The translations under genes were made by a program, and so were the position numbers. Positions 4,449 through 49,627 of a DNA stretch of 64,000 bases are shown in pieces. Source of the DNA: a virus (taxonomy: Duplodnaviria > Heunggongvirae > Uroviricota > Caudoviricetes); IMG/VR virus record IMGVR_UViG_3300033142_000627, positions 13,280-77,279 of that record; one strand, given 5' to 3'. The notes beneath the pieces were generated by a model. The model saw only the letters and a program-made list of their open reading frames with translations, was not told the origin of the DNA and made no database searches. The stretch's first letter is position 1, and each line of letters opens with the position of its first letter.

Positions 4449-4658
4449 TTAATCCTTAAAAGGTTTAACTTCTAAACCAACAATTTCGTATGTTCCTGGC
4501 AAAGCGTCAAAGTAATGATGAAATTTTAAACCAAGAACTTCCCACCTTTCACAAAGAGGTTCGATTATATCTCCGACTTCCGGAATTTTATCGTCATAGA
4601 TATTTCTTCCGTGGTCTATATAATTTTCATCAATGAAATAGTGGTAGTTTCTGTTCAT
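4449..4658 (-). CDS. Hypothetical protein (69 aa)
   Basis: Packed ORF. No motif. Confidence 0.4.
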   Translation of the reverse strand: MNRNYHYFIDENYIDHGRNIYDDKIPEVGDIIEPLCERWEVLGLKFHHYFDALPGTYEIVGLEVKPFKD

Positions 4659-4909
4659 TACAGTTCGACAGTGTTACTTGGGTTCTGATAAGAAGCTTTC
4701 AACTTATGATACATTGCACGACCACACATTGGGTCTAGTTCACAGGACTTGCCTGGTTTTACCTTGATGTATCTGTCCATATCAGGAGACTCTCCTGGAA
4801 TCCTCATAAACTCAGGTGGATTCCAAGGCATGAATAGTTTCTCTGATGCGTCTGCATTGAAAAGTTCTTTTGTTGCCTTGCGTAAGGCTTTTGCTTTTTT
4901 TCCATTCAT
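4658..4909 (-). CDS. Hypothetical protein (83 aa)
   Basis: ATGA-type overlap with the downstream ORF. Confidence 0.4.
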   Translation of the reverse strand: MNGKKAKALRKATKELFNADASEKLFMPWNPPEFMRIPGESPDMDRYIKVKPGKSCELDPMCGRAMYHKLKASYQNPSNTVEL

Positions 4910-4921
4910 AGATAGTTTACC

Positions 4922-5215
4922 TTATTCTGATGCAGGGAAGATTGTTTCGTAAAGAGTCTCAAGGTCTTCATTCTGACCAAAAGTAACATCTTTGTTCTGC
5001 TTGTGATAGATACGAGCAATCTTGTTAATCATTGCTTTTGTAATACCATTAGACTTATAACCAAGTGCGATATCTTCAACGATAGTCTTAATCTGTTCTT
5101 TCTGGCCGTCGATATGGGTTAAGGCGACACTAATCTCCTTAACTGCGCCCATAATCTCCTTGCGAGATTTGTCGTCTGATGGTAATACGATTGATGTTGG
5201 TACTGTTGTTGCCAT
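4922..5215 (-). CDS. Hypothetical protein (97 aa)
   Basis: Packed ORF. No motif. Confidence 0.45.
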   Translation of the reverse strand: MATTVPTSIVLPSDDKSRKEIMGAVKEISVALTHIDGQKEQIKTIVEDIALGYKSNGITKAMINKIARIYHKQNKDVTFGQNEDLETLYETIFPASE

Positions 5216-5279
5216 GGTTGTTCTCCATAATATAGTTCAAGTGTCCATTATAGGACACCAAGGTTTACCTGTCAAGACA

Positions 5280-5561
5280 TTAGTGAAATGTCTCTGAGAT
5301 TTTAGTTATTTCGAATGTTTCAAAGTTATCGCCTGGATTCCAATAATCATTTAACTCGTTTATAGTAAGTGATAGTGTATTTGGTATACCTTCTATATCT
5401 TTCTTCACCCAAGCAAATGGTATAACATTAACTTTATCTAATGAAGCATCTTTCCATACTTCAAGAAATTCGCTGCCTTCTTTTATATACACACCTGTTT
5501 TTATAGGGATTTCTCCCTCTTTGTATGTTATAACAGGTATATGGGATAGGTCAAAGATCAA
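5280..5561 (-). CDS. Hypothetical protein (93 aa)
   Basis: Packed ORF. No motif. Confidence 0.45.
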   Translation of the reverse strand: MIFDLSHIPVITYKEGEIPIKTGVYIKEGSEFLEVWKDASLDKVNVIPFAWVKKDIEGIPNTLSLTINELNDYWNPGDNFETFEITKISETFH

Positions 5562-7863: not shown

Positions 7864-8045
7864 ACAAATATGTCAACTCGTTTATAGATTGGTTCGGTGC
7901 CAGAAACCCGTTTATTTGGGTTCTTAGGACGATATTCATCAAGTTCAATTGGTGTGAAGTCTCCAGACTTGAACTCTATATATCTATTTAGTTCGAATAT
8001 TCTGGTTGTGTCGATTACATTATTGGTAGATGAAACTGTGGCCAT
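7860..8045 (-). CDS. Hypothetical protein (61 aa)
   Basis: Packed ORF. Confidence 0.35.
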   Translation of the reverse strand: MATVSSTNNVIDTTRIFELNRYIEFKSGDFTPIELDEYRPKNPNKRVSGTEPIYKRVDIFV

Positions 8046-8213
8046 TTGTGTTTCTCACTCTCTTGTATTTGATGCCTTTCCAACCTTTGCAAGGTGTTAT
8101 CTTACCTATCTTCACATCTGGTCCTGTACGGTAATCGTATTTGTCACATAGACCTCCACGAAACCTAGCACCAAGATGTTGATAGTATTTACAGCTGCCG
8201 CAGGATTTACTCA
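8020..8213 (-). CDS. Small Cys-rich protein (about 63 aa; start revised to MSKSCGSCKYY)
   Basis: As listed the ORF overlaps its upstream neighbour by 160 nt. The internal ATG at 8213 gives an ATGA overlap with the stop of 8207-8614. Confidence 0.4.
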
Positions 8214-8614
8214 TCGTTTTCTCTGTAGTAATATTCCCAGTCAAGATCGGCCGTTTGTATTTGTATAGATGTTCCCTCAATATCAGGAATGTCGTGTTTC
8301 TTTCTATTACAAATAACGATACCTTCGCCAACAATTCGCCACTGTTTACTAGGTCTATCACTCTCAATCAATCGATATTTGCACATCAATGGTTTAACAC
8401 ACTCGAATACATTTTTGATAACTTCATTTCTGAATTCAATGTTACTTTCGTGAACCCATATCTTGAAAAACCATCCTTTGTGTTCAATCCATAGATGAAT
8501 ATCTTCGTTGTGTGGAGTGGTCTCTAATTTCCATTTTCCTGTCGGCTTAAGAGGTTTCCAGTCATAACCATAATCAACATCAATTTTTCTGTAGGCTATT
8601 TGATTGATTTTCAT
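8207..8614 (-). CDS. Hypothetical protein (135 aa)
   Basis: Packed ORF. Confidence 0.5.
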   Translation of the reverse strand: MKINQIAYRKIDVDYGYDWKPLKPTGKWKLETTPHNEDIHLWIEHKGWFFKIWVHESNIEFRNEVIKNVFECVKPLMCKYRLIESDRPSKQWRIVGEGIVICNRKKHDIPDIEGTSIQIQTADLDWEYYYRENDE

Positions 8615-8997
8615 TCTACAATCTCTTCTTTAGCCTCTTTTATCTCGCGTACATTTGTTACAAGGGCATTATATCCAAGTATGTGTAACAAGAAGAAGAA
8701 TCCAGTTATAGGATATCCAACATAGGCAAGATAAACAACAATTACAATATCTACAACCACATCAACCCATATCGGCATTGAACGTTGATTGAGAATATCA
8801 TCAACATTCTTTTCCTTCTTTGATACTTCCTTGGCGAAACCCTGTGAGAATCCGAATAGGCCTATAATAATTGTGACCCAGATTGCCATGATTCCTAATA
8901 CTTCAAATCCTCCGATATCAAAGTATATACCCGCCGTAATCAATACTGGACCAAATGCGTTATATGCTGCCCATCTAAGTTTCTTAATAATCTTCAT
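8611..8997 (-). CDS. Integral membrane protein (128 aa, 3-4 TM helices)
   Basis: Long hydrophobic segments. Confidence 0.5.
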   Translation of the reverse strand: MKIIKKLRWAAYNAFGPVLITAGIYFDIGGFEVLGIMAIWVTIIIGLFGFSQGFAKEVSKKEKNVDDILNQRSMPIWVDVVVDIVIVVYLAYVGYPITGFFFLLHILGYNALVTNVREIKEAKEEIVE

Positions 8998-9020
8998 AGT
9001 AATTTCAAGTTTCCTGTGGT

Positions 9021-9428
9021 TTATACAGTAAGTAATTTGTCAAAATCTGTGTTGGTAACGTTCTCAATGTCGTTTCTCCACACAGTAATGAGTTCCAGTG
9101 TGTGATCTTTCTTCTTGTTCATGACGATATTCAATTGAGATTCCGCATCATACACAAGATATTTGACTCTTGGTGAACAACGGAACTCTTCATTATATGA
9201 TAAGAACATTCTTGTGAACATTCTTTCAAGTTCAGGAATACCAATCCAGTTACGGTGATTTCTTACATGATTCACCCGTTCTCTGAAATGCTTGGTCGCC
9301 ATGAACATAAAGTCCATCTTGCGACCAAAACCATTAATCAAGTCGATGAATTCTTGTTGATTCACATATTCATCTTTCCGACTTGGTCTGATTCTAAGAC
9401 TTGTCATCGATAAGGATATTCGTGTCAA
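9021..9428 (-). CDS. Hypothetical protein (135 aa)
   Basis: Packed ORF. Confidence 0.45.
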   Translation of the reverse strand: MTRISLSMTSLRIRPSRKDEYVNQQEFIDLINGFGRKMDFMFMATKHFRERVNHVRNHRNWIGIPELERMFTRMFLSYNEEFRCSPRVKYLVYDAESQLNIVMNKKKDHTLELITVWRNDIENVTNTDFDKLLTV

Positions 9429-9648
9429 AAGGAGGATTCATATTACCCAGACGCAAAAGGTGACCGAATGTGTTCATAAGGTCCCATCCTTGCCAGCGCG
9501 ACCAACCGTCCTTGTCTTCCTGTACAGGCACATACTCTCTATCGAACGGTAGTCCGGCATAAAGAATATCATGTTGTTTTTTATGTTCGGCACGACCAGC
9601 GTCAGTCAATCGAACCTTCACATAATTGTTGATATTAAAACTTAACAT
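9394..9648 (-). CDS. Hypothetical protein (84 aa)
   Basis: Start uncertain because it overlaps the downstream ORF by 35 nt. Confidence 0.4.
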   Translation of the reverse strand: MLSFNINNYVKVRLTDAGRAEHKKQHDILYAGLPFDREYVPVQEDKDGWSRWQGWDLMNTFGHLLRLGNMNPPFDTNILIDDKS

Positions 9649-10094
9649 TTCAATTCAGCCAAAGCACGTTTCAGGCGTAGATAAGATTTGTTGTATTTCT
9701 TGATACGCTCAAAGTCTTTGTCACGTACACCTTTCAAACGTGTGATATCTGAGTTGTGCTCGATGTCTGCCATTTTGATTTTCATGGCAGTTTTGTTACC
9801 AGATTCAATCAAACGATCAATAAAGTCTTCGTATGTCTCACCATCAAGTTTTGACAACAGTACAACAATCTCAACTTCGTCTTTCGTGAATCCTGCCTCG
9901 TTCAACATTAATGCTGTGTAGTGGGTGTCTTCAATGACATCATGCAGAACAGCGGAGATCATTGCAATCTCACCAAGATGTGAGACTTTGTTCATCACCG
10001 TGAGGCAATGCAAGATATATGGCTTTCCGCCGCGGTCTGTTACATCAACAAAGAGTGTCGATGTCAGTGCTATGGCGCGTGATAGTCGTTTCAT
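9642..10094 (-). CDS. HD-domain small alarmone hydrolase-like protein (SpoT/Mesh1-type (p)ppGpp hydrolase fold)
   Basis: H...LHDVIEDT motif (ILHCLTV ... AVLHDVIEDTHYT). About 150 aa from the ATG at 10094, which has an AAGAGAGAA SD. The listed start at 10115 is a GTG. Confidence 0.6.
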   Translation of the reverse strand: MKRLSRAIALTSTLFVDVTDRGGKPYILHCLTVMNKVSHLGEIAMISAVLHDVIEDTHYTALMLNEAGFTKDEVEIVVLLSKLDGETYEDFIDRLIESGNKTAMKIKMADIEHNSDITRLKGVRDKDFERIKKYNKSYLRLKRALAELKC

Positions 10095-10128
10095 TATTTT
10101 GTGTTCTCTCTTCACTCAATCTATGGTT

Positions 10129-10215
10129 CCATTATACAGGTATGGCCACCACCGGCAACCAGCTGACGTAAGTTATTGAAATGATTGTGCTTATATGGGT
10201 ATAAGCAGGGCTTAT
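10129..10215 (-). promoter_or_regulatory. PeSL-like cassette 2: stem-loop, 28-nt box and TTGCCG-16-TATAAT promoter
   Basis: -10 at 10131-10136, -35 at 10153-10158, conserved box at 10167-10194, ATAAGC-AGG-GCTTAT hairpin at 10201-10215. Confidence 0.6.
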
Positions 10216-10430
10216 TTTGCCACCAGAGAGCGGCCAGAATAATTAAATATTGCGCCGTTATTACAAATTGCGCTGAACAACCCACGATAACTAATGGCCT
10301 GAGAAGTAACTTTTCCCACTCCGTTGTTTGTGGAACATTTATCATCAGCATAGTTCCAAGCTTCGCCAGGAACACTCGCTGTACAACCGACCATAAACAG
10401 CAGTGGTACAACTAATAGTAACTTTTTCAT
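10212..10430 (-). CDS. Small lipoprotein (signal peptide MKKLLLVVPLLF, lipobox MVGC)
   Basis: Signal peptide and lipobox Cys. Confidence 0.55.
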   Translation of the reverse strand: MKKLLLVVPLLFMVGCTASVPGEAWNYADDKCSTNNGVGKVTSQAISYRGLFSAICNNGAIFNYSGRSLVAK

Positions 10431-10657
10431 TTGATGGTTTCCATTGTTCTGTGATTAAACTTGATATTGACTAAATTAATTAAAGTTCCGTCATGACAGG
10501 TAACCTCGGTCTGACCGGTCCAATATTCTGTCAGTGTCTTGATTCCCGACTTGTCTTTACAGAAGTATTCAGCCTTTGTATATGTTTCCATATCAATTGT
10601 CTGGTAAAAACAACCAGTTAAAAATAATAACGGTACAACTAATAACAACTTTTTCAT
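10427..10657 (-). CDS. Small lipoprotein paralogue (identical signal peptide, lipobox LTGC)
   Basis: N-terminal 12 aa identical to the adjacent lipoprotein. Confidence 0.55.
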   Translation of the reverse strand: MKKLLLVVPLLFLTGCFYQTIDMETYTKAEYFCKDKSGIKTLTEYWTGQTEVTCHDGTLINLVNIKFNHRTMETIK

Positions 10658-10869
10658 TTGTAATATTCCTCTTTTAGTTGTTGAACTTTATTCAATAAAG
10701 ACCTATATGGTTCATGTAAAATGGCCTTGGGATTATCATCAGATTCTATAATAAAATCTTCAATCTTGTCAAAGATTATTTCAACACATCTTTGTTGGTA
10801 ATCCCAAGCTTCTCTTGTTTCAGAATCAGGGATTATGCCGACCTTGGCACACCACTTTTCATAGGTCAT
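10654..10869 (-). CDS. Hypothetical protein (71 aa)
   Basis: Packed ORF. Confidence 0.4.
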   Translation of the reverse strand: MTYEKWCAKVGIIPDSETREAWDYQQRCVEIIFDKIEDFIIESDDNPKAILHEPYRSLLNKVQQLKEEYYK

Positions 10870-11201
10870 TCGATAACCTCATAACCTAGTGATTTTTGTT
10901 TTTTGTGAAGTTCTTTCCAGAACTCTTCAGCGAATAGTAACCCATCACCGTATGTCGGAACATTTCTGTTCATTATTCTCCGAGCATGAGAATCACAAAT
11001 CCTTTCCCGAATATCTGTGTCGTAACAACCCCATTTAAGAACTTCAAAGAATAAATCATCCATGTGACACGCTTCATCAATAAGTTGATTGTCTGTCAAT
11101 CGTACATTAAGATATTCTTGGTAGAATTCGTCCATTTCTGTAATGGTCTTTCCTGCCTCAGCAAGACTTAGAATTCCCAATATAAGTTTTCTATTTTCCA
11201 T
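10866..11201 (-). CDS. Hypothetical protein (start revised to the internal MENRKL)
   Basis: The listed start at 11270 overlaps the upstream ORF by 80 nt. Confidence 0.4.
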   Translation of the reverse strand: MENRKLILGILSLAEAGKTITEMDEFYQEYLNVRLTDNQLIDEACHMDDLFFEVLKWGCYDTDIRERICDSHARRIMNRNVPTYGDGLLFAEEFWKELHKKQKSLGYEVIE

Positions 11202-11385
11202 TTGATTCGGACTCTTCGTTAGTTTCTTCTTTGGAACCCCAAAATTCTTCGCCCATGCGGACATGACCAAATTCTTTTACATCTTCGCAAGCAGGACAGA
11301 CGCCAAAGTATTCGCCACCACAACCACACACATGAGGGGTTCCGTCACCGGAGAACATCTTAACTACTTCGTATTCTTCTTCCAT
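11191..11385 (-). CDS. Small Cys-rich acidic protein (64 aa)
   Basis: CGCGG...CPAC motif. It is the first gene after cassette 3. Confidence 0.4.
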   Translation of the reverse strand: MEEEYEVVKMFSGDGTPHVCGCGGEYFGVCPACEDVKEFGHVRMGEEFWGSKEETNEESESNGK

Positions 11386-11413
11386 AATCTCTCACTCAAC
11401 TCAATTTATGGTT

Positions 11414-11480
11414 CCATTATACGCAAAAAAAGGGGCCATGTAAAGCCCCTTTCGTAAGTATTTGAAATGATTGTGCTTAT
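11414..11480 (-). promoter_or_regulatory. Cassette 3: conserved 28-nt box, terminator hairpin in place of the -35, and TATAAT -10
   Basis: -10 at 11416-11421, box at 11453-11480. The leader is shared with the other cassettes. Confidence 0.5.
11425..11454. terminator. Rho-independent terminator (GGGGC-N8-GCCCC flanked by A and T runs)
   Basis: aaaaaaaGGGGCcatgtaaaGCCCCtttcg. On the minus strand it follows ORF 11498-12097 and directly abuts a TATAAT box. Confidence 0.7.
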
Positions 11481-11497
11481 GGGTACATCAGCCAGAT

Positions 11498-12097
11498 TTA
11501 TAGGTCTGAGATATCGACCTCATCGATGTGTTGAATCGAACGAATGTGTGTTGGACTATGGTCCAGTTTAGTCAGGATAGTACTTTCTTTAAACACAAAG
11601 GCACGTCCATTGACCTTAGAGAAACCGTCAAGACCAGACTTACCGAACACCGGTTTTCCCAGCTTCGCTGATTTGCGTAGTTTGCCGAATCCTGGCCACG
11701 CATCACCGCACTCGTTTGTGGAAATGGCGTAGTAGTCGCCTCCTTTATCCGCATAAGTGATAGCATCTTGTTCGAACTCAATACCAAGGACAATCAATTC
11801 CTTCTTGAGTTTGCCTGTGTTCTTGAGGTCTGTGACGAAAAATGACTCTTCGTTCACAAGTTTATCTCCAGATTCATACCACGAACCCTGTACCTTGGTG
11901 ACACCAAACCCTCGTTTAAGTAATTTCGCTTTCAGTACCGCATTTCTAGCTTTCTTTGACTTGGTAGTGTACTTCTCACCTGTACCACAATCTTTATTGT
12001 CTCTAAAGGCAGTGATAGTACCTGTGTCGTGTTCTGACCACTGGCGTTGCACCCGCGATAGTGACGACTCACTCAAAAATTCTTTCTTGGTCTTCAT
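11498..12097 (-). CDS. Hypothetical protein (199 aa, Lys/Gly-rich)
   Basis: First ORF after cassette 4. No motif. Confidence 0.5.
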   Translation of the reverse strand: MKTKKEFLSESSLSRVQRQWSEHDTGTITAFRDNKDCGTGEKYTTKSKKARNAVLKAKLLKRGFGVTKVQGSWYESGDKLVNEESFFVTDLKNTGKLKKELIVLGIEFEQDAITYADKGGDYYAISTNECGDAWPGFGKLRKSAKLGKPVFGKSGLDGFSKVNGRAFVFKESTILTKLDHSPTHIRSIQHIDEVDISDL

Positions 12098-14772: not shown

Positions 14773-14979
14773 TTATTGCACTACCGTAATAGCCGATTGA
14801 ATTGAATCCATTTTTAACCATAATACAGCGCCAACAGAAAAAACATTGGAACAAATAAGACCGCCCCAAAAACCAACTTGGTTGTTCCAGTTGAGTAATC
14901 CAGCAATCAACATTAATCCTGATAAGGCCATATATACTAAACCTGTGTCCATAATATAAACTCCTCTATTATATTTCAA
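14773..14979 (-). CDS. Small membrane protein (68 aa)
   Basis: Two hydrophobic helices. Confidence 0.4.
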   Translation of the reverse strand: MKYNRGVYIMDTGLVYMALSGLMLIAGLLNWNNQVGFWGGLICSNVFSVGAVLWLKMDSIQSAITVVQ

Positions 14980-15787
14980 TTAAAAATCGTGGTTTATGGT
15001 ATTCGTTCTCAAGACCACCATAAACATTAGGATATCCCATAGGGTTACACATCAAACGGGTCTCGCCAATATTGAAGTCGTAACCATCGTGAGTATGTCC
15101 ACTAAACCATAGGTCAGGTTGATATTCACGAATGAATCCATCAAGGTGTGACGCATAAGCATAGTTAAGTGTAGCCATTTTCGTTGTCTTGTATCTTGGA
15201 TGAACACACTCAAACGAAGGAAGATGATGAGTAACCACAACCCGTTTCTTGTCTTTGTGTTCTTTCAGTGCGTTCCAAATTGCCTTGAGATGTTTCTTGT
15301 GAATCTCGTATGCATCAGCAGGACGAAACTTTCTGTAATGGTTGCTCTGTCTAATGGTGATTGCTTGATAGTCATTCATGAACAGTTTGGCATCGGCCAT
15401 CTCCAGAGGACTAAAGTTGTTGAAGTCTGTCCATAGGGTGCCACCGGTGAACAGAACACCATCAATAACTCTCCAATCTCCGTTAAGGAAATGGAAGTTC
15501 TCTACAGAGTCATCAAAGTTGATCATGAAGTTGTCAACTTTATCAATACGACCACCGTAGTATTCGTGGTTTCCATTAACAAAGACAACATGTTTGAATC
15601 GTTCACAGAAGTTATCAAGAAGTTCTTCAAGCATAGAGTTAATCATCTTACCATTGCCCGGTTTGCCGATGTCTCCAGCAAGCACCAGAACCGTTTCAGA
15701 ATCATCAGGCCCAATGAGGTCCAGACCGAGGAATGTTTTCGTACGGTAGAATTCTGAATGGATATCTGATAGTAGTTTGATTTTCAT
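14969..15787 (-). CDS. Calcineurin-like metallophosphoesterase (272 aa from the MKIKLLSDIH start)
   Basis: Motifs DIH, GDIG, GNHE and GHTH in order. The ATG at 15787 gives an ATGA overlap with the upstream ORF; the listed 15934 start is an N-terminal over-extension. Confidence 0.7.
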   Translation of the reverse strand: MKIKLLSDIHSEFYRTKTFLGLDLIGPDDSETVLVLAGDIGKPGNGKMINSMLEELLDNFCERFKHVVFVNGNHEYYGGRIDKVDNFMINFDDSVENFHFLNGDWRVIDGVLFTGGTLWTDFNNFSPLEMADAKLFMNDYQAITIRQSNHYRKFRPADAYEIHKKHLKAIWNALKEHKDKKRVVVTHHLPSFECVHPRYKTTKMATLNYAYASHLDGFIREYQPDLWFSGHTHDGYDFNIGETRLMCNPMGYPNVYGGLENEYHKPRFLIEI

Positions 15788-16095
15788 AATGTTTTTAGTA
15801 TTCTTTCTAATTCTTTGTCCATTTCCTGCAAGTCTTCGACAGGCATATGTCCAACAAATGGCCAAACACCATATTGTTCCATCTTGGTGATTGGTTCGAT
15901 CAATACGTTCTGACGAACACCTTTGTTTATCCAAGATACTATACGATATGGAAAATAATAATCTCTTTCTTCGCCAACAGCCGCGACCTTTTTCATTTTC
16001 TCAGAGTCACGAATCTCCATACGTTCCAGGCCATGGTGCCTTGCTAACATCTGGAGATGTTGGTTTTTTACTTTTGTGAATGTATTAGTATTCAT
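15784..16095 (-). CDS. Hypothetical protein (103 aa)
   Basis: First gene after cassette 5. Confidence 0.5.
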   Translation of the reverse strand: MNTNTFTKVKNQHLQMLARHHGLERMEIRDSEKMKKVAAVGEERDYYFPYRIVSWINKGVRQNVLIEPITKMEQYGVWPFVGHMPVEDLQEMDKELERILKTL

Positions 16096-16132: not shown

Positions 16133-16525
16133 TTATTCGTAGAATTTGGGTCTTGATACCTCTCCATCATACACCACCACAACAATCACCTGTAGACCTA
16201 GTTTATTTGCGGCCGAAATCATGTGTTGAGTGCCTCGACTCTTTCCGTCCCATACAGCAAATAGACCATCAGCATACTCGGCCATTTCTGTGTTTCTAAT
16301 AGGACCAGCACCTTTGCCGTATTTGTCCCAATCAGCAGGAAATTTCTTGAACTTGATATCAAAATACTCAGCAGTTTTCTCTGCGTATGTGTCAACGCCT
16401 CGAGCTCCACCAGAAACAATCTCAGATGGTGTACACCAATCAAAATATGTTTCTAGTGCTTTGGTATATTCTTCAACGGTAATATCTCTGCTGCCGGCAA
16501 TAATAACTTTGTCTGGGTCAAACAC
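16133..16525 (-). CDS. DUF2493 / SLOG (LOG/YspA-like) family protein
   Basis: VIIAGSRD...GGARGVDT...GPIRNTEM...VWDGKSRGT pattern. Confidence 0.55.
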   Translation of the reverse strand: MFDPDKVIIAGSRDITVEEYTKALETYFDWCTPSEIVSGGARGVDTYAEKTAEYFDIKFKKFPADWDKYGKGAGPIRNTEMAEYADGLFAVWDGKSRGTQHMISAANKLGLQVIVVVVYDGEVSRPKFYE

Positions 16526-17028
16526 TATGCTATCCTATTCAAGATTCGTTCTGCCTTGTAAATGTTTCTTGGAGTTAAACCAATGAAATTATCGACTACA
16601 ATGAAATTATCTTTCTGCCAGTAGAGCATATCACTATCGTCATCAAGGATAACATACTCTTTGAAATTGTAAGACTCTTCTATGTTATCTTTCATCCAAT
16701 CATAGATTTCATTTCCACGAAATACCGATTTCTGATCGAAACTTGGAGTCCTGTCGATGATATTACCAGTAACACCAGCAAAGCCAAGAACATCTCTCAG
16801 TTCATCAACGGTACGACCAAGGCGCCAGGTTGAGGACACAACAATATCCGCATTGGTGTTATCGGTTAGTTCATTAAGATTTGATACCGAACGAGGACAT
16901 AATCCATCGGTTAAATAACCATCTCCGTTGTCTACTCGCCATTGTTCTCTAGTCATACTCTGGTGATTCAATACACCATCAATATCTAGGAAAATAAGTT
17001 TATTCATCAATCCGTTCCCATTCATCAT
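16525..17028 (-). CDS. HAD-superfamily phosphatase (polynucleotide 3'-phosphatase-like)
   Basis: Motif I FLDIDGVLN (DxDGxL). ATGA overlap with the downstream gene. Confidence 0.55.
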   Translation of the reverse strand: MMNGNGLMNKLIFLDIDGVLNHQSMTREQWRVDNGDGYLTDGLCPRSVSNLNELTDNTNADIVVSSTWRLGRTVDELRDVLGFAGVTGNIIDRTPSFDQKSVFRGNEIYDWMKDNIEESYNFKEYVILDDDSDMLYWQKDNFIVVDNFIGLTPRNIYKAERILNRIA

Positions 17029-17391: not shown

Positions 17392-17608
17392 GTTTCACCA
17401 AAAAGTGGTCGTCAATGTGTGCATGAACCCACCGCGAGGCATTAGGATTACCATTGTCGATTAACAACCAAGGTCCTTTCTTCTGACTGAATTGAATCTT
17501 ATCTTCAACCTTACGGACAACCCACTTGTCACCATCACGTTTGAGGCGTTGTTTTGCCTTGGCACTACGAGCACCAATGATAACTTTTTTATTTAGCCAG
17601 TCGGTCAT
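17378..17608 (-). CDS. Hypothetical protein (76 aa)
   Basis: Packed ORF. Confidence 0.4.
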   Translation of the reverse strand: MTDWLNKKVIIGARSAKAKQRLKRDGDKWVVRKVEDKIQFSQKKGPWLLIDNGNPNASRWVHAHIDDHFLVKLDES

Positions 17609-17924
17609 TTTGTTTCTTTTCCCATTTGTCCAGTTTTGTTTGGAACATCTCTACGGCCGCTTCTTCAAGAATATCATTATCCATTGTGACAGCGTTCATA
17701 ATATCCATAGCGACATTAATAACATCACAAGTTTCCTCGATAATATCAAAGGCGCTGCCAGAAGCTGATACTGAGGTATTCTTTGCGCCGTCATACTTTA
17801 GAAACGCTTGAGCAAGTTCTCCAGATTCTTCTTGTAGTTTGATAATCTTTTGATATAAAGGAACATCTTTGTCAGCGATACTTAGATAGTGAACCCTTTC
17901 TTCATCAATATAATCTCTATCCAT
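17589..17924 (-). CDS. MazG-like nucleotide pyrophosphohydrolase
   Basis: EESGELAQAF helix and an all-alpha acidic composition. Confidence 0.5.
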   Translation of the reverse strand: MDRDYIDEERVHYLSIADKDVPLYQKIIKLQEESGELAQAFLKYDGAKNTSVSASGSAFDIIEETCDVINVAMDIMNAVTMDNDILEEAAVEMFQTKLDKWEKKQNDRLAK

Positions 17925-25203: not shown

Positions 25204-25478
25204 TAAGATTTTCCTTTCCTATATTCGATCTCACATAATTCTCCAGGCAACATCTTGTAACGTTTTGAACCGTCAAGAACAACACCGTTTTCAAGGCCAA
25301 TAGAATAACCTCTTGTCCATTCTGTAGTATAGTTGTCACAGACAATTCTCGATTCTCTTGAAATCATATCATCATAAACAACAACAGAGGACCACATCAT
25401 ATAGACAAGCATCGAAATTGTTCCAATAGAAAACGTTATCCAAAAAGTATCCCAGAATCGATCACTATTTGTTCTCAA
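25203..25478 (-). CDS. Small membrane protein (91 aa)
   Basis: N-terminal TM helix. Confidence 0.4.
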   Translation of the reverse strand: MRTNSDRFWDTFWITFSIGTISMLVYMMWSSVVVYDDMISRESRIVCDNYTTEWTRGYSIGLENGVVLDGSKRYKMLPGELCEIEYRKGKS

Positions 25479-26349
25479 GACTATTCTCCCAGTTCTCTTT
25501 CATACGTTCTTGAAGCATTGCAGCAACAACCTTGCTCAAAGGACCACAAATAGACCTACGGTTATCTTCTTGACCTTCGTTCTCTTTGATGAAATCTTCC
25601 CAAGCGTCTTCAATGATGCCTTTGATATAAACACCAAGTTGCTTCTTGTCCTCAATCTCACCTTCTTTTGAGATGAACGAAAGCATCCTATTCTCATTCA
25701 CGAATGGGAACATAGGATTGTCCTCGATAGGAGTGATAACCCTTGGCTTCTTCTTCGAGTTGTCCTTCTCGGAAAACTTCTTAGACTTCAGCTTGATGGT
25801 CATTGGATTACCAAAACGGTCAATCATCACATCATTGTAACCAGTGATAACAATTCCTTCGGCAGGATGTTTCTCATCAATCAACAGAGTGTCGAAATCC
25901 TCCACATCAAACTCAATAGCTTCTTTGAGAGTCATTCTTCCTATTTCCGAATGAACAAGTTCTGGGTATCCAATAGCGGTCATGTAGATAGCGAATTGTT
26001 GTTTGCTCTGTAGAACACCATCAATTGTCATGGCGTAGAAAAGTACCCGAGCATCTCCGTAGGGGATACGTTTCAGAATCTTACTAGAGAACACCTCCCC
26101 GTAGATATTGACGTTCTTGTGTAATGACATCACTTTGTTGATGAACTCTTGTGGTACAAGTTCACCAAGATTATTCCATGTTGGATCAACCTTCTGATTT
26201 CGTGACGCAAAACTCCAATCAGCATCTCTCACACAAAGAGACATATTAGAACCGTCGATCTTCTCAGAGATTGATACCATGGCGTTCATGTGTTCGTGTG
26301 ATAGAACTGTTGAATGTAGATTGTCCAAACTATTGAATTTAATAAACAA
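25465..26349 (-). CDS. rnlB: RNA ligase 2 (Rnl2-like)
   Basis: N-terminus MFIKFNSLDNLHS matches T4 Rnl2 MFKKYSSLENHYNS. Motif I EKIDGSN. Confidence 0.8.
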   Translation of the reverse strand: MFIKFNSLDNLHSTVLSHEHMNAMVSISEKIDGSNMSLCVRDADWSFASRNQKVDPTWNNLGELVPQEFINKVMSLHKNVNIYGEVFSSKILKRIPYGDARVLFYAMTIDGVLQSKQQFAIYMTAIGYPELVHSEIGRMTLKEAIEFDVEDFDTLLIDEKHPAEGIVITGYNDVMIDRFGNPMTIKLKSKKFSEKDNSKKKPRVITPIEDNPMFPFVNENRMLSFISKEGEIEDKKQLGVYIKGIIEDAWEDFIKENEGQEDNRRSICGPLSKVVAAMLQERMKENWENSLENK

Positions 26350-28284: not shown

Positions 28285-28486
28285 AGTATTTCATATCATG
28301 GATGGTAAACCAACCATCGTCACCGATGATTCCTACTACCGGACTAGACCAGATTGGTGAATCAGTAGGAGAGACAGTGGTAACTTTATACAATTTTCCT
28401 AAAGTTATGTTCAGGTCATCTCCAACTTTGATACACTTTATAAAGTCTGTGGCCTTAATCACCTTTAACAATACCTTCATGAACAT
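28256..28486 (-). CDS. Hypothetical protein (76 aa)
   Basis: Packed ORF. Confidence 0.35.
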   Translation of the reverse strand: MFMKVLLKVIKATDFIKCIKVGDDLNITLGKLYKVTTVSPTDSPIWSSPVVGIIGDDGWFTIHDMKYFEEQNDENI

Positions 28487-29468
28487 CCCGCATCCACGCC
28501 CACCAAGGAGTCATATTTGCACGTTCAGGGTAGTCGCTGACTTCGGCAAGCATCATCACTTTATCAACAAGTTCTTCCAGAATAGGTTGAACCTCTGTTG
28601 TGTAGTCAAGTTCACCACGTTTTACAGCAAGGATAAAATTTGTCTCGCCAAGAGGGTATGAGAAACCACCATCTTCATAGATGTGTTTCGCTTGAACACC
28701 AGCACGAATCGCGTGACTCACTGCCTTCCAATCAACACCTTGGTTCTCTTTCGCTGCCTGAGCACGAGCACCGTAACTTGACCATAGGTTCTTTAGTTGT
28801 TGTCTAAAGATACCGATTTTCAGAGTCGATTGGTACTTGCGACCAAGAAGTTCGTAGAAAGTCTGAATCTCGCCTTTGGTTCCCACTGTAGCAGTAACAA
28901 TGCCAGAGTGTTCGCTGACAGGTAGACTATTCATAAATGAACCCAGTGTGGTAGGCACCATATGGCCACCATCACCGTCTTCTCTTGGACGGAACATCTC
29001 ATCAGAAATAAGGTCAACTTTCTTCATCGCCTCTTCAAGAACAGCAAGGCGTGAACCCTTCACGCCATACTTGGCAGCCTGCTTACGCACGTAACCAATG
29101 TATGACTTCATGTTCTTAGTGTAGAAACCTTCACGACCTTTCTTGAGATGGTCCCAAAGATACAGAGCGTCACCACCGACCACATTCTTTTCTTGTGAAT
29201 GAAGCATATCGATTGCAACAGTCTCGCCTTTGCCAATCAGCTCAAGGAACCGTTGAAGAGAGAAGTATTCGGTATCGATATCGCCTGCGCCATTCTTCGA
29301 ACCATCATCGCCAGTTGAATGACTGATATGAAAGGACGTATTTCCCATAAGGATATCTTCCTTTGAAGGAAGAACAATGCCTTTGTAATCACGGTCAGAA
29401 TCAGGTCCGGATAGACCATAAAGATGCGATCCAAACTCAAGTTTTACAATTAGTTTTCTTTCGGTCAT
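28455..29468 (-). CDS. Pol-beta superfamily nucleotidyltransferase (337 aa)
   Basis: GSHLYGLSGPDSDRDY fits the GS-x9-13-DxD NTase signature; a downstream Asp follows (VAIDML). Confidence 0.5.
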   Translation of the reverse strand: MTERKLIVKLEFGSHLYGLSGPDSDRDYKGIVLPSKEDILMGNTSFHISHSTGDDGSKNGAGDIDTEYFSLQRFLELIGKGETVAIDMLHSQEKNVVGGDALYLWDHLKKGREGFYTKNMKSYIGYVRKQAAKYGVKGSRLAVLEEAMKKVDLISDEMFRPREDGDGGHMVPTTLGSFMNSLPVSEHSGIVTATVGTKGEIQTFYELLGRKYQSTLKIGIFRQQLKNLWSSYGARAQAAKENQGVDWKAVSHAIRAGVQAKHIYEDGGFSYPLGETNFILAVKRGELDYTTEVQPILEELVDKVMMLAEVSDYPERANMTPWWAWMRDVHEGIVKGD

Positions 29469-33375: not shown

Positions 33376-34038
33376 ATGACTACATCTATTTATACGCACT
33401 ATACATATTTAATAACCAATACAACTTCTAATAAAATGTATATTGGTCTACGTTCTTGTGTGGGTCCGGCCGAAGATGACCCATATATGGGATCATCCCA
33501 CGATAAAAAATTTAAAAAGCTTCTCTCAGATAAACCAAAAATATTCACAAAGATTATTATTGGATTATGGCCAAGTAGAAATCTGGCAGCTGCTCATGAG
33601 ATATGGTTACATGGTTATTATAATGTTGCGACAAACCCATTATATTACAATAAGTGTAACGCTATTGGTTCTGGGTTTAGTATGTTAGGTGTAAAAACAT
33701 CACCAGAGACAAAATTAAAACAAAGTTTATCCTCTATAGGACAAGAAAGAAGTGCTGAGTATAGAAAAAACATCAGCAAAGCTAAAATCGGTTCTCGTAA
33801 TCCGTTATTTAAAGGATGGTGTATACATAATGGAACAAAATATACACCTGTTGAATTATCTAAACATTTAGGTCACAAAATAACAAGAGGATGTTGTGAT
33901 AAATGGTGTAAAAATAACAATAGTGTTATATCAATTTATACGTATATCAACTCCCATTACCTACAATCATTAGGACCATCAGAATCATTGATAGGCAAAA
34001 CATTCGAACAGTTAGGATTTTCTTTCGAATTCGTTTAA
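33376..34038 (+). CDS. GIY-YIG homing endonuclease (Seg-like, with NUMOD-type DNA-binding repeats)
   Basis: YTYLITNTTSNKMYIG is a GIY-YIG motif. EYRKNISKAKIGSRNP is NUMOD3-like. It is the only plus-strand gene in a minus-strand array. Confidence 0.75.
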   Translation: MTTSIYTHYTYLITNTTSNKMYIGLRSCVGPAEDDPYMGSSHDKKFKKLLSDKPKIFTKIIIGLWPSRNLAAAHEIWLHGYYNVATNPLYYNKCNAIGSGFSMLGVKTSPETKLKQSLSSIGQERSAEYRKNISKAKIGSRNPLFKGWCIHNGTKYTPVELSKHLGHKITRGCCDKWCKNNNSVISIYTYINSHYLQSLGPSESLIGKTFEQLGFSFEFV

Positions 34039-35619: not shown

Positions 35620-35825
35620 TCTTCAAAAACCTTCGCTCCGAATACAGGCACACAATGTTTGTCTCTTGGTAATGATTTTTCACATTCTACAATAGACTGA
35701 TTTGTTTGTGTGCCATATTCATATACAGGCGTTTTTTTCATTATCCACATTCCAAAAAACATTGAAATGATAACCGCCCAGACAAAAGCGAGAAGGATTC
35801 CATTGTTGTTCATTGTACTCTCCAA
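35616..35825 (-). CDS. Small membrane protein (69 aa)
   Basis: TM helix. Confidence 0.4.
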   Translation of the reverse strand: MESTMNNNGILLAFVWAVIISMFFGMWIMKKTPVYEYGTQTNQSIVECEKSLPRDKHCVPVFGAKVFEE

Positions 35826-36913
35826 TTAACATCTTTAAAAATAAACTCACGGTTCTTAAACACGAAAGTCTTGTAGTTAACATCTTTGCCTAACCACTTC
35901 TGCATCACCAAGGAGAACACATCAGACATATCCTTTTGACCTTTGATAGCAAAGTCCTTACGTTCAAGTTCTTTGTTGTTCTCTACGAACTCTTCCACTC
36001 TAGCAACAATATGATTGTACTTGTGGAATACCATTTCTTCAAAGTCGTCAATGATCTTGATAGTCAATGGGTCATCATGGAACAATGAACGTAGGTCATC
36101 AGAACCTTCCTCAAGAACACAACCAAGAAGTCTCTTTGGATGATTCACATCGTCCTTAGCATGATGCAACTCAACGTAACGGTCAGTCTTGCACTTCACC
36201 TTGTGTTGTGACACAGGATGTTGGAATACAAAACCTTCGATAACAGTACCATCTTCGCCTTTCATAGCGGCAACATCTTCCATCTTGATATCTGTTTCGT
36301 ATTTTACCCAATACTTTTTTAGACTAGGAGATGGATCTCTCAAATATTTCGCCGGCATGTAATCGCCATATTTTCGATTACGCACATTCAAGATAACAAG
36401 TTTTGTTTCTGGATAAAGAATGACGATACGGTTATTAGGAGATACAATCTCCATATTAATGGTGTAACCTTCTTCTTCAATCTCTAATAAGATAGCTTTG
36501 AATTTTGGTTGTGTGTTTAACCAAATCTCAGCAAGATGTACTTGGTCAGAGTGTAGAGAACCTTTAGTCTTCAATCGAAGATTTCCTTTAACGTCAAGAT
36601 AGGTAGAGATAAGAGAGCCATCCTCTTTAACCATAATCTCGGTGTATTCGTCCCAGTTAGTCTCTTCATGTTCAGGCCATTGATTGCACTCACCATGATT
36701 CCAAAACTTTTCCATCGGGCGAGATACAATCTCTCCGTCACGGAACATAATACCACGCGCCTCTATTGCGCCTGGTTCTTGGAAGTCGGTGTATGATGCA
36801 AGACGATACAAAAAGATTTCGTATGTCGAACCATCATCACCAGATTGGGTGGACTTGTAGAACGCCTCGTTGTTTTCAACAAGGTCGTTTAAATTTTCGT
36901 ATAACGTTTTCAT
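35810..36913 (-). CDS. rnlA: RNA ligase 1 (T4 gp63 / Rnl1-like)
   Basis: VSRPMEKFWNHG and KEDGSLISTYLDVKG match T4 Rnl1 ASRPMEKFFNL and KEDGSLVSTYLDG. Confidence 0.85.
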   Translation of the reverse strand: MKTLYENLNDLVENNEAFYKSTQSGDDGSTYEIFLYRLASYTDFQEPGAIEARGIMFRDGEIVSRPMEKFWNHGECNQWPEHEETNWDEYTEIMVKEDGSLISTYLDVKGNLRLKTKGSLHSDQVHLAEIWLNTQPKFKAILLEIEEEGYTINMEIVSPNNRIVILYPETKLVILNVRNRKYGDYMPAKYLRDPSPSLKKYWVKYETDIKMEDVAAMKGEDGTVIEGFVFQHPVSQHKVKCKTDRYVELHHAKDDVNHPKRLLGCVLEEGSDDLRSLFHDDPLTIKIIDDFEEMVFHKYNHIVARVEEFVENNKELERKDFAIKGQKDMSDVFSLVMQKWLGKDVNYKTFVFKNREFIFKDVNWRVQ

Positions 36914-37621: not shown

Positions 37622-37695
37622 CCATTATACAGGTATCATTGGGAGAGTCAAGAGTTTACGTAAGTGGTTGATTTTGCATAGTATTTCTATGCAAA
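37622..37695 (-). promoter_or_regulatory. PeSL-like cassette 10 (TTGACT-16-TATAAT plus a 9-bp stem-loop TTTGCATAG/CTATGCAAA)
   Basis: -10 at 37624-37629, -35 at 37646-37651, hairpin at 37673-37695 that contains the stop codon of the upstream gene. Confidence 0.6.
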
Positions 37696-38487
37696 CAAGT
37701 CTTCCAGTGAACCTTCTTTTGTCTGATTTATGTTCTTGAGGTTGTATTTTGCGTCTTCAAACGTGAACGGCGGTTGGTCAATCTGAATCTTAGGTCGTTC
37801 TGTCTTGTCGAACCATGCTAGATCCTTCTCTTTAGGATAGTTCAATCCCCAAGTCATAGTAGAACCACGTTTCATCAGCTTCTTCGCCTTCTTATTCAGA
37901 GGCCAAATATATCTGAACATATAACCCTCAATGAACTTGATGTTTTTGGACTTCATAAAGGGTCTGGTCATCCAGAACAACTTCTCTTTGCCTTCAAAGA
38001 TAGCGTTCTCTTTGAGTAATCCCTTTGTGCTTCTTGGATGCAACTTCTCGCCATTCTCCATCATATAGACTTGAGTGAGATATTTTTCACCAAAGTAGGC
38101 ATTAGAGGCCTGATAGACATAACCTACCTTGCCCATGATTCCATCCGCCATGGTGTATAGGAATAACTTCTCTGGATATTCTTTCTTCAACCACTTGATG
38201 GTCTGAGAGACCATCTGCGATTCACTATTGCGCGGCATATCATCATCCATGCACATCTTGCCGATTTCAAAATAAGATTCTGTGCCCAATCCGGGAAACA
38301 TCTTATTGATAGTCTGTCGTGGTTGAGTTCCCCATCCTAAGGTAAGGACACCAACAAGTTCATCTTCAAGATAGAAACCAAGAAAATGTTTTGTGATTGA
38401 GGGGAATACAGGAGAATAGTGGTACTTCTGCACAAACTCCATGGCCTTCCATTTAGGAAGGTCACGAATTAAGAAGTTATACTTCAC
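37687..38487 (-). CDS. Hypothetical protein (266 aa)
   Basis: Long ORF. No confident motif. Confidence 0.5.
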   Translation of the reverse strand: MKYNFLIRDLPKWKAMEFVQKYHYSPVFPSITKHFLGFYLEDELVGVLTLGWGTQPRQTINKMFPGLGTESYFEIGKMCMDDDMPRNSESQMVSQTIKWLKKEYPEKLFLYTMADGIMGKVGYVYQASNAYFGEKYLTQVYMMENGEKLHPRSTKGLLKENAIFEGKEKLFWMTRPFMKSKNIKFIEGYMFRYIWPLNKKAKKLMKRGSTMTWGLNYPKEKDLAWFDKTERPKIQIDQPPFTFEDAKYNLKNINQTKEGSLEDLFA

Positions 38488-49589: not shown

Positions 49590-49627
49590 TAACATTATCA
49601 AACACTTTAGTCAAGAGAATATCTAAA

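Follow-up and report, generated by a model that had tools for sequence, protein, structure and literature searches.

Small alarmone hydrolases in phages and toxin-antitoxin systems

The closest characterised relative of the phage protein described here is Aph1 (Bacteroides caccae, PDB 7SMG; PMC10083569), a (p)ppApp-specific hydrolase that assembles as a homotetramer and turns over ppApp at ~478 per min. Its gene lies in a temperate Bacteroides phage, directly 3' of the gene for MuF-Apk2, a (p)ppApp synthetase toxin against which it has an immunity role (PMC10083569). The Aph family was collected by homology to a C-terminal segment of Aph1 (Y90-E143), independently of the HD motif; ppApp is hydrolysed by 12 of 12 tested members, ppGpp is left untouched by 10 of the 12, and the other two hydrolyse it modestly. 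Specificity for ppApp is set by D24 and R119: Asp at the D24 position is the hallmark of the family, the residue of TtRel at that place (R43) is the Arg that stacks on guanine, and Aph1 needed the combined D24R + R119A swap to gain ppGpp hydrolysis (PMC10083569).

A second line of work concerns the PbcSpo small alarmone hydrolases (SAHs). ATfaRel of Cellulomonas marina is a PbcSpo SAH and the type IV antitoxin of the FaRel toxSAS (PMC7229694). It degrades (pp)pApp and also strips the 3'-CCA pyrophosphate from tRNA (PMC7229694; 10.1101/2021.04.30.441581), which restores the aminoacylation of pyrophosphorylated tRNA (10.1101/2021.04.30.441581); these two activities provide a mechanistic model in which one hydrolase neutralises both classes of toxSAS. 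To the same SAH subfamily belongs gp220 of Salmonella phage PVP-SE1, which neutralised all five toxSAS with which it was tested (CapRel, PhRel, PhRel2, FaRel2 and FaRel) on plasmid co-expression in E. coli, not in infection (PMC7229694). The idea of phage SAHs as counter-defence was thus proposed, and tested, already in 2020 (PMC7229694).

Mesh1, PaSAH, RelH and SpoT/Rel, which hydrolyse (p)ppGpp, are more distant: they share with the protein considered here the HD superfamily and its metal-binding constellation H...HD...ED...D...N, and differ from it in the features described below.

The alarmone hydrolase gene

The gene lies on the minus strand, at 9642-10094, of a 64,000-nt stretch of viral DNA (the window: positions 13,280 to 77,279 of IMG/VR record IMGVR_UViG_3300033142_000627). 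Its reading frame runs from an ATG at 10094 to a stop at 9642-9644 and encodes a 150-aa protein (henceforth SAH) that has the catalytic residues and the signature residues of the Aph family, and a match to PDB 7SMG. Starting instead at an upstream GTG (10115) would yield 157 aa; on a JGI contig with 99.97% identity the gene has likewise been called in its 150-aa form. The identical protein is also recorded from a 77-kb JGI contig, and JGI sample 3300033155 supplied a contig of 12.8 kb. The GC content of the gene is in line with that of the core genes. An earlier note, made from the letters of this DNA alone, had remarked on a 150-aa frame with a SpoT-like HD motif, and the motif is indeed there: H29 ... 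V-L-H51-D52-V-I-E55-D56-T.

Database matches place the assignment far above chance level: PHROG 990 ('metal-dependent phosphohydrolase') matches with E 6e-46, TIGR00691 (spoT_relA) matches in its N-terminal region with E 1.4e-10 (the NCBIfam matches are N-terminal and partial to long RSH models), the best PDB sequence match, Aph1, has E 5e-20, and there are 249 database homologs; 272 of the deposited phage genomes encode a homolog. Together with the fold matches described below, these bear out the suggestion that the frame encodes a small alarmone hydrolase of the RelA/SpoT superfamily. Pfam scans taken without other evidence are not decisive. HD_4 (PF13328), the model with which the earlier note proposed to check its reading, gives a marginal 19.1 bits, under its gathering cut-off of 27.2 bits, and the Pfam HD model is likewise under its own; many of the homologs carry a precomputed PF13328 match. 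A PADLOC scan leaves the SAH unmatched, so that it is no known defence-system component.

An Aph1-type fold and an adenine-type pocket

A phmmer search of the PDB aligns SAH residues 8-142 with residues 12-142 of Aph1; Rel and SpoT follow at ~1e-7 and Mesh1 at E 0.39, and PaSAH is absent from the matches at E <= 1. The AlphaFold2 model (pLDDT 95.3, pTM 0.90) has eight main helices and a 4-residue turn, and its top Foldseek match in the PDB is 7smg_A (TM 0.87/0.93, the value normalised to Aph1 being 0.93; rmsd 1.1 Å over 140 columns). All significant PDB sequence matches, and the top 49 of the 50 fold matches listed, are RSH hydrolase domains or SAHs; the protein groups with these and not with generic HD phosphohydrolases, the grouping that the earlier note had held would tell against it.

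Within that superfamily the resemblance is uneven. Among the significant Foldseek matches the (p)ppGpp-type SAHs, Rel and SpoT superimpose with an rmsd of at least 3.7 Å. Mesh1, PaSAH and RelH, with 170-190 aa, lie at 4.0-7.1 Å from the SAH model and share 18-22% identity with it (>4 Å and 18-24% when SpoT/Rel is compared along with them). Mesh1 and the stand-alone (p)ppGpp SAHs are ~20-40 residues longer than the SAH and have at least one extra helix, and this whole group has Arg at the position of D20. Aph1 and the SAH, by comparison, are nearly equal in length (149 and 150 aa), are both phage-borne, and share a compact eight-helix HD fold, predicted in the case of the SAH, from which helices 0 and 9, known from (p)ppGpp hydrolases, are missing. 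Their homology is recognisable in the C-terminal half alone: the last 63 residues of the SAH (88-150), from which the HD motif is missing, retrieve 7SMG with E 2.2e-6 (1-55 against 90-142) and nothing else from the whole PDB at E <= 10. Overall identity to Aph1 is only 36%.

The residues agree with the fold. In a 123-sequence MAFFT alignment the catalytic set of Aph1 (H33, H53-D54, E57-D58, D110, N114) is complete in the SAH, as H29, H51-D52, E55-D56, D110 and N114, and invariant in 120 homologs as well as in a second alignment. The six signature residues of Aph1 (D24, R96, D116, R119, K133, Y134) are identical as well, becoming D20, R94, D116, R119, K133 and Y134 of the SAH; among the homologs the D24 equivalent is conserved in 119/120, R119 in 120/120, K133 in 117/120 and Y134 in 118/120. 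The SAH segment D20-R21-G22 aligns with R-Q-S of MtbRel, whose Arg occupies the D24 position. The SAH is of the compact Aph1 (probably also PbcSpo) type. It is not of the SpoT/Mesh1 type that had been read from its HD motif: Mesh1 is matched with E 0.39 and superimposes at 4.4 Å against 1.1 Å for Aph1, and D20 takes the place of the guanine-stacking Arg. The modest ppGpp activity of two of the 12 Aph homologs cautions, on the other hand, that the signature residues are no guarantee of strict specificity.

PVP-SE1 gp220 is 42% identical to the SAH over 142 residues (E 6e-34). At 169 aa it has a ~14-residue N-terminal extension relative to the SAH; it shares the equivalents of D24, D116, R119, K133 and Y134 and is without that of R96. 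It, too, is a stand-alone gene, carried by a large virulent myovirus that also encodes a MazG-like pyrophosphatase, the lineages being different (PVP-SE1 is one of the Vequintavirinae, the SAH phage is T4-like). From the gp220 match we infer that the Aph family and PbcSpo are probably one and the same; we found no paper that explicitly equates them, in a name search clouded by papers on the gamma-secretase subunit APH1. With phage homologs of it tested before, the SAH is an ordinary addition to a known family.

The phage and the neighbourhood of the gene

Megablast of window positions 8000-12000 against 50,697 phage records returned no match. The phage thus has no close sequenced relative in that set and was placed instead by protein searches, in which its UvsX shares 60% identity with the UvsX of Acidovorax phage ACP17. 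We take the source to be a virulent, T4-like phage.

What is presumably an early region holds, besides the SAH, further genes of counter-defence: those for SAM lyase, Acb1, RNA ligases, RlaP and HAD_SAK_2. A candidate sigma-70-type early promoter (10131-10158, minus strand; TTGCCG-16 nt-TATAAT, a match to consensus only) ends 37 nt 5' of the ATG at 10094, within the 117-nt gap that follows the preceding ORF. Promoter-like matches in the region number 8, against 7.4 ± 2.8 in shuffled sequence; since the count equals the shuffled expectation, it is the position of this candidate that suggests a function.

In a syntenic relative (L003) the SAH, 72% identical, is the best-conserved gene of its block, its neighbours being 41-62% identical. 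The synteny takes in several downstream ORFs of unknown function and, upstream, a pair of small lipoprotein-like ORFs, all poorly conserved and without annotated function; in rV5-like phages the SAH homolog has different neighbours altogether. The gene accordingly has no conserved operon partner.

Is a toxin encoded nearby? Neither an RSH synthetase (RelA_SpoT) nor a MuF domain was found by Pfam or PHROG scans in the 28 window ORFs of at least 186 aa, and the ten ORFs flanking the SAH (64-199 aa) have no PHROG match to either. We therefore call the SAH a stand-alone hydrolase, with the proviso that the search covered 64 kb of a genome that is probably larger (its T4-like relatives have ~155-200 kb). 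The gene stands alone in the same way both in the syntenic relative and in one of the Vequintavirinae. This arrangement distinguishes the SAH from Aph1, with its adjoining toxin gene in a temperate phage, and from ATfaRel, which belongs to a bacterial three-gene TA operon and also adjoins its toxin. A search of the window for tRNA genes found none, and the window is without a structural-gene module.

The MazG-like reading frames

The earlier note had coupled the hydrolase to two MazG-like enzymes that might help it to clear alarmones. Both frames exist at the coordinates given there, on the minus strand, and both have EExxE ... E(E)xxD metal motifs. The first (17589-17924; 111 aa; EESGE32-36, EETCD63-67) matches PHROG 1247 ('MazG-like pyrophosphatase') with E 3.7e-10; a Pfam MazG search leaves it unmatched, so that its membership holds only at the level of the superfamily, and its phage homologs are mostly those of Bacillus phages, annotated as MazG-like. 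The second (42298-42621; 107 aa; EECAE18-22, EMAD53-56) matches Pfam MazG with 24.1 bits (cut-off 22) and PHROG 4856 with E 7e-19, and shares its gene string with the Acb1 anti-CBASS gene. PDB searches with the two were uninformative (the first has a weak similarity to YpjD/2GTA, E 0.25). Neither frame resembles the phage homolog set of the other. Against PVP-SE1 gp209 the first aligns weakly (E 2e-4) and the second does not align.

The only experimental support for phage MazG proteins clearing alarmones comes from Atd1 of Pectobacterium phage PcCB7V, a MazG-like enzyme that depletes (p)ppGpp and protects against TIR effectors (10.1101/2022.06.09.495361). The MazG fold, to which Atd1 belongs, bears no relation to the HD fold of the SAH. 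Tblastn with both window frames finds no Pectobacterium phage among the matches listed and, judged by the organisms of those matches, neither has detectable similarity to Atd1. Cyanophage MazG, in work cited by PMC12846349, leaves (p)ppGpp unhydrolysed; the same paper already takes up the pairing of an SAH with MazG, in the case of Pseudomonas phage Adele. The two frames lie 7.5 kb (the first) and 32 kb (the second) from the SAH, in other gene strings. A link of either to alarmones or to the SAH is unsupported by position or by homology, and the proposal that the three enzymes act together lacks support on both counts, within the matches listed.

What the hydrolase may do in infection

We favour the view, with a probability of roughly 0.7, that the SAH is a stand-alone, metal-dependent adenosine 3'-pyrophosphohydrolase of the Aph1/PbcSpo branch that cancels the products of toxSAS early in infection. 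H29, H51-D52 and D110 would hold Mg2+ or Mn2+, with E55-D56 and N114 as the remaining parts of the RSH hydrolase site; the pocket, formed by D20 and R119 along with D116, K133 and Y134, would admit adenine but not guanine. Produced from an early-region gene of the virulent T4-like phage, such an enzyme would take the 3'-pyrophosphate off (p)ppApp, leaving ADP or ATP, and, on the model of the PbcSpo enzyme ATfaRel, may also strip it from the terminal A76 of tRNA. The products of two kinds of host toxSAS, the FaRel/Tas1-type makers of (p)ppApp and the CapRel/PhRel/FaRel2-type pyrophosphorylases of tRNA-CCA, would be cancelled in this way. These toxSAS would be abortive-infection defences, and ATP and translation would stay available for the phage once their products were removed. 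The notion that the enzyme neutralises toxSAS, already voiced in the earlier note, is plausible, its 42%-identical relative gp220 doing just that in E. coli (PMC7229694); as we weigh the evidence, it is the best-supported role that the SAH may have. We found no report of a phage SAH rescuing a phage from toxSAS defence during infection.

Might the tRNA arm of this activity be the one that counts? Healing of tRNA 3' ends, that is, removal of the CapRel-type pyrophosphate from A76, could be the chief role in vivo, one arm of an RNA-repair toolkit of unusual size; we regard this as a tentative variant, appreciably less probable than the general role. The genome encodes other RNA-repair proteins (Rnl1, an Rnl2-like ligase, RlaP, HAD_SAK_2 and a Metallophos phosphoesterase), and in a related phage a PTH2 peptidyl-tRNA hydrolase gene adjoins that of the SAH. 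If healing is the role, the adenine pocket of the Aph branch would have been selected for recognition of A76 as much as of ppApp.

That the SAH is instead a SpoT/Mesh1-like (p)ppGpp hydrolase, which lowers host (p)ppGpp and blunts the stringent response, is on much shakier ground. It does belong to the RSH HD superfamily (the N-terminal TIGR00691 match), two of 12 tested Aph homologs have modest ppGpp activity (PMC10083569), and the literature documents both phage restriction mediated by alarmones and phage factors that bring (p)ppGpp down (PMC13483052; 10.1101/2022.06.09.495361). For many of the deposited homologs the annotation reads 'guanosine-3',5'-bis(diphosphate) 3'-pyrophosphohydrolase', but these annotations are automatic transfers, not tests. 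D20 at the guanine-stacking position of TtRel R43, and R119, are exactly the pair that was swapped in Aph1 (PMC10083569), and the SAH model, 1.1 Å from Aph1 and >4 Å from Mesh1, PaSAH and RelH, is without the extra C-terminal helix of the (p)ppGpp SAHs. Given these two specificity residues, the clearing of (p)ppGpp is the least likely part of the earlier proposal, and a stringent response blunted by that route is improbable.

Slightly less probable still is an immunity function like that of the founding member of the family, Aph1, which acts against MuF-Apk2 of a Bacteroides prophage (PMC10083569): the SAH would then protect the phage from a (p)ppApp synthetase toxin of its own, encoded outside the window, and it is true that the window, 64 kb of the genome, is without the structural-gene module in which a MuF-type protein would sit. 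Speaking against this are the absence of RSH synthetase and MuF domains from the window ORFs of at least 186 aa and from the flanks of the SAH, and the fact that the syntenic relative and one of the Vequintavirinae have the gene standing alone as well. To our knowledge, moreover, MuF (SPP1 gp7-like) proteins belong to head modules of the temperate siphophage type and not to T4-like phages. Only 0.4% of Aph1 homologs lie near a MuF gene (PMC10083569).

An equally doubtful reading makes the SAH a promiscuous 3'-phosphatase or pyrophosphatase, acting on NADPH, PAPS, pAp or another 3'-phosphorylated adenosine, possibly an immune signal, with alarmones as secondary substrates. Mesh1, an NADPH phosphatase that binds PAPS, is among the fold matches (PDB 5VXA, 9CHY), an orphan bacterial SAH is reported to be metabolically promiscuous (PMC9765508), and the SAH lies among counter-defence genes that degrade nucleotide signals, Acb1 for example. 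The sequence similarity to Mesh1 is nevertheless marginal (E 0.39), by far the nearest relatives, the Aph enzymes, turn ppApp over quickly and were active on it in 12/12 cases tested (PMC10083569), and we found no report of such promiscuity in the Aph/PbcSpo branch. A generic HD phosphohydrolase with no connection to alarmones, to which the sub-threshold Pfam HD_4 and HD scores and the bare name of PHROG 990 might point, is very hard to reconcile with the significant PDB matches, with 49 of 50 listed fold matches to RSH hydrolase domains or SAHs, and with the invariance in the family of the RSH-specific E-D pair and of N114, the ribose contact.

Implications

The practical value of the assignment is mostly one of annotation. 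Pfam HD_4 misses the SAH at its curated threshold, and the homologs, hundreds of phage genes, go by the labels 'metal-dependent phosphohydrolase', 'GTP pyrophosphokinase' and 'ppGpp pyrophosphohydrolase'. Their products either have the Aph1 signature or are homologs of proteins that have it, and a fitter name for them would be predicted (p)ppApp / 3'-pyrophosphoryl-adenosine hydrolases. The SAH also draws attention to a gap in the reports that we found, namely the rescue of a phage from toxSAS by a phage SAH in a real infection. If the prediction of an adenosine 3'-pyrophosphohydrolase directed at toxSAS products is true, the SAH would be one more instance in which a virulent phage, rather than blocking an abortive-infection toxin, uses an enzyme to remove what the toxin has made.

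The SAH and its family

The minus-strand open reading frame at 9642-10094 (stop 9642-9644, ATG at 10094) encodes the small alarmone hydrolase (SAH), and support for its reality and family is statistically overwhelming: the 150-aa translation has the HD motif noticed earlier (H29, then VLH51D52VIE55D56T), it matches PHROG 990 with E 6e-46, and databases hold 249 homologs, 140-150 aa long. Starting from a GTG in frame at 10115 would lengthen the product by seven residues, but the ATG is where homologs begin, and the gene called by JGI on a contig of 99.97% identity likewise encodes the 150-aa form. The profile check suggested in the earlier note is borne out in part: Pfam HD_4 matches marginally (19.1 bits, cut-off 27.2), and TIGR00691 (spoT_relA) matches in its N-terminal hydrolase part only (E 1.4e-10).

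The SpoT/Mesh1 type proposed in that note gives way to another. Across all PDB sequences the top match, well ahead of the rest, is 7SMG, Aph1, the (p)ppApp hydrolase of Bacteroides caccae (E 5e-20; residues 8-142 against 12-142); hydrolase domains of Rel, RelA and SpoT follow at E about 1e-7, other small alarmone hydrolases at 6e-4 to 0.05 and human Mesh1 at 0.39. The last 63 residues, searched alone, match only 7SMG in the PDB (E 2.2e-6), even at E <= 10. An AlphaFold2 model (47-sequence alignment as input; pLDDT 95.3, pTM 0.90) predicts eight main helices and one four-residue turn. Compared with the PDB by Foldseek, this model finds four 7SMG chains at the top (TM 0.87 for query and 0.93 for target, rmsd 1.1 Å, 36% identity), with the SpoT and Rel hydrolase domains behind; the stand-alone enzymes Mesh1, PaSAH and RelH (170-190 residues) also rank below, at rmsd 4.0-7.1 Å.

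Proteins of the Aph1 family, as defined in PMC10083569, combine four features: the HD site for catalysis, a compact fold of eight helices from which helices 0 and 9 are missing, a signature of six residues (D24, R96, D116, R119, K133, Y134) and recognisable homology over the C-terminal segment Y90-E143. A MAFFT alignment of the SAH, 120 homologs and fragments of Aph1 and M. tuberculosis Rel has invariant catalytic residues throughout; the SAH has the same residue as Aph1 at each of the six signature positions (D20, R94, D116, R119, K133, Y134), and Rel carries Arg in place of D24. With catalytic site, signature, predicted compact fold and C-terminal homology all present, the SAH therefore has every sequence- or structure-based attribute of the family. 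The homotetramer and the (p)ppApp activity are features of Aph1, to which the SAH is likened by sequence and predicted structure.

The double change D24R + R119A confers ppGpp hydrolysis on Aph1, and all 12 purified Aph family members hydrolysed ppApp, only two having modest ppGpp activity (PMC10083569). Taken with these tested homologs, the specificity residues of the SAH predict an adenosine-specific 3'-pyrophosphohydrolase rather than a SpoT/Mesh1-type (p)ppGpp hydrolase (probability roughly 0.85). The HD site would bind Mg2+ or Mn2+ and use it to remove the 3'-pyrophosphate from (p)ppApp; pyrophosphorylated tRNA A76 would probably lose its 3'-pyrophosphate in the same way.

Genomic surroundings

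The DNA of the window is the early/replication part of a large, virulent, T4-like phage that has no close sequenced relative. Megablast for such a relative gave no match, and UvsX shares 60% identity with its counterpart in Acidovorax phage ACP17. Other proteins encoded here are gp32, the gp59 loader, DNA ligase, RNase H, the RNR large subunit, primase and a DnaB-type helicase. The GC content of the SAH gene (41.5%; window, 38.9%) resembles that of core genes, so the gene is not compositionally foreign. In a related phage contig (L003) the SAH is 72% identical and local order is kept (two small lipoprotein-like ORFs, SAH, then unknown ORFs); it is the best-conserved protein of that block, its neighbours having 41-62% identity. 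Directly upstream in the window, the two tandem ORFs (72 and 76 aa; 10212-10430 and 10427-10657, minus strand) have nearly identical lipoprotein-like signal peptides (MKKLLLVVPLLF..GC) and counterparts of 47-51% identity at the same L003 position. A candidate minus-strand sigma-70-like promoter (TTGCCG-16-TATAAT), 37 nt upstream of the SAH ATG in a 117-nt gap, fits early transcription, though such matches are no commoner in the region than in shuffled sequence. About 1 kb downstream of the L003 SAH lie genes for a PTH2 peptidyl-tRNA hydrolase (4584-4988) and a CYTH triphosphate-tunnel enzyme (5082-5555), neither of which matched the window by tblastn.

The early region around the SAH is rich in counter-defence and RNA-repair genes. 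An ORF 1.4 kb upstream (11498-12097, minus strand, 199 aa) is likely an anti-restriction/anti-BREX SAM lyase, judging from a precomputed Pfam match (S-AdoMet lyase, PF23780) on the identical JGI contig; in PHROG it matches unknown-function families only. A minus-strand homolog of the anti-CBASS 2H-phosphodiesterase Acb1 (41484-41975; PF23474, E 2.7e-37, 128 bits, cut-off 27), an overlapping 111-aa ORF (41966-42301) and a MazG-like ORF (42298-42621) form one tightly packed string. The RNA-repair kit, unusually large for a single phage, comprises by domain matches five minus-strand ORFs (14969-15934, 16525-17028, 25465-26349, 28455-29468, 35810-36913): a Metallophos phosphoesterase, HAD_SAK_2 (the "Swiss Army Knife" RNA-repair HAD domain, E 5.5e-27), an Rnl2-like RNA ligase, an RlaP pol-beta nucleotidyltransferase and an Rnl1/RnlA ligase. 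No tRNA genes were found in the window.

Other genes of the window deserve mention. A Mom-family protein (37687-38487, minus strand; PF25680, E 4.6e-53) suggests DNA base modification by this phage. An NMNAT-like/cytidylyltransferase-like ORF (52662-53363, plus strand; PF01467, 28 bits, cut-off 21) closes a plus-strand block of unknown ORFs (49071-53363) and could be part of NAD-salvage counter-defence. Two tandem paralogs (360 and 408 aa; PHROG 19197; 56941-58023 and 58344-59570, minus strand) carry the DruA/DUF4338 domain of the Druantia defence system (PF14236, about 44 bits, cut-off 27; PADLOC DruA, E 4e-8 and 3.5e-7), and these relatives of a host defence component sit within the phage replication module. 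The ORF at 33376-34038, a lone plus-strand gene within a long minus-strand block, is probably a homing endonuclease insertion (weak SegE-type GIY-YIG and NUMOD3 matches, both under cut-offs).

Biological role

The functional precedent is direct: gp220 of Salmonella phage PVP-SE1, a PbcSpo-subfamily SAH, stand-alone like that of the window, is 42% identical to it (E 6e-34) and shares its equivalents of Aph1 D24, D116, R119, K133 and Y134. Co-expressed gp220 neutralised the toxic small alarmone synthetases (toxSAS) CapRel, PhRel, PhRel2, FaRel2 and FaRel (PMC7229694, Table 1); the PbcSpo enzyme ATfaRel, antitoxin of FaRel, restored aminoacylation of FaRel2-modified tRNA (10.1101/2021.04.30.441581); and CapRel has been established as a genuine defence against phages (PMC9712102). 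Together these make counter-defence against toxSAS-type abortive infection the most likely role of the SAH, at somewhat better than even odds; the toxSAS neutralisation of the earlier note is retained by way of gp220, the activity of the SAH itself being predicted. A distinctly more tentative proposition is that the SAH serves mainly to repair tRNA ends, as an integrated part of the large RNA-repair kit.

Of the alarmone clearing also envisaged there, the (p)ppApp part is predicted from the Aph1 signature; (p)ppGpp hydrolysis, blunting the host stringent response, is improbable, being disfavoured by D20, R119 and the predicted fold. Because Aph1 provides immunity against a (p)ppApp synthetase toxin fused to MuF (PMC10083569), a toxin gene was sought around the SAH: none of 28 window ORFs of at least 186 aa has a RelA_SpoT synthetase or MuF domain, nor did any of the ten flanking ORFs (64-199 aa) match one, and the gene therefore stands alone, at least within the 64-kb window. 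Self-immunity against a phage-borne toxin encoded beyond it is quite unlikely, with no toxin nearby and the stand-alone arrangement recurring in other large phages; the same low odds apply to a 3'-phosphatase of broad specificity that works on other adenosine compounds. A generic HD hydrolase, the grouping that would have told against the earlier note, is essentially excluded.

The two MazG-like ORFs of that note are present on the minus strand, at 17589-17924 (PHROG 1247, E 3.7e-10) and 42298-42621 (Pfam MazG, 24.1 bits against a cut-off of 22); with their EExxE ... E(E)xxD metal motifs both are, by sequence, all-alpha NTP pyrophosphohydrolase-like. They lie 7.5 kb and 32 kb from the SAH within other gene strings, and joint alarmone clearing is speculation. 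Published results on phage MazG point in opposite directions: (p)ppGpp is depleted by the MazG-like Atd1 of Pectobacterium phage PcCB7V (10.1101/2022.06.09.495361), and cyanophage MazG does not hydrolyse it, according to work cited in PMC12846349. Tblastn found homologs of the first ORF in Bacillus and Pseudomonas phages and, among the matches listed, of the second in Rhodobacter, Bifidobacterium and Citrobacter phages; no Pectobacterium phage is among the matches listed for either. PDB sequence searches with both were uninformative.

Distribution and annotation

Of 50,697 deposited phage genomes, 272 encode an SAH homolog. Among the carriers are 74 records from Aeromonas phages, including the T4-likes 44RR2.8t, 65 and phiAS5; the gene is also present in rV5-like phages of Klebsiella, Escherichia, Salmonella and Cronobacter, in jumbo phages and in temperate pneumococcal phages. 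Their annotation varies (for example ON287374.1, MW250786.1, KY652726.1): usually "metal-dependent phosphohydrolase", "GTP pyrophosphokinase" or "ppGpp pyrophosphohydrolase", elsewhere "ppGpp synthesis/degradation protein", "guanosine-3',5'-bis(diphosphate) 3'-pyrophosphohydrolase" or "hypothetical protein". For an HD-only protein of 140-170 aa any synthetase label is an error, and where a homolog has the Aph1 signature the ppGpp label is probably one too.

Jimmy et al. proposed in 2020 that phage SAHs serve to bypass alarmone-based defence (PMC7229694), and PMC12846349 discusses the pairing of SAH with MazG in Pseudomonas phage Adele; the counter-defence idea is therefore already known. What is new is the sharper assignment of this SAH as a predicted Aph1-type, adenosine-specific enzyme, of a family that current annotations and Pfam HD_4 under-describe.
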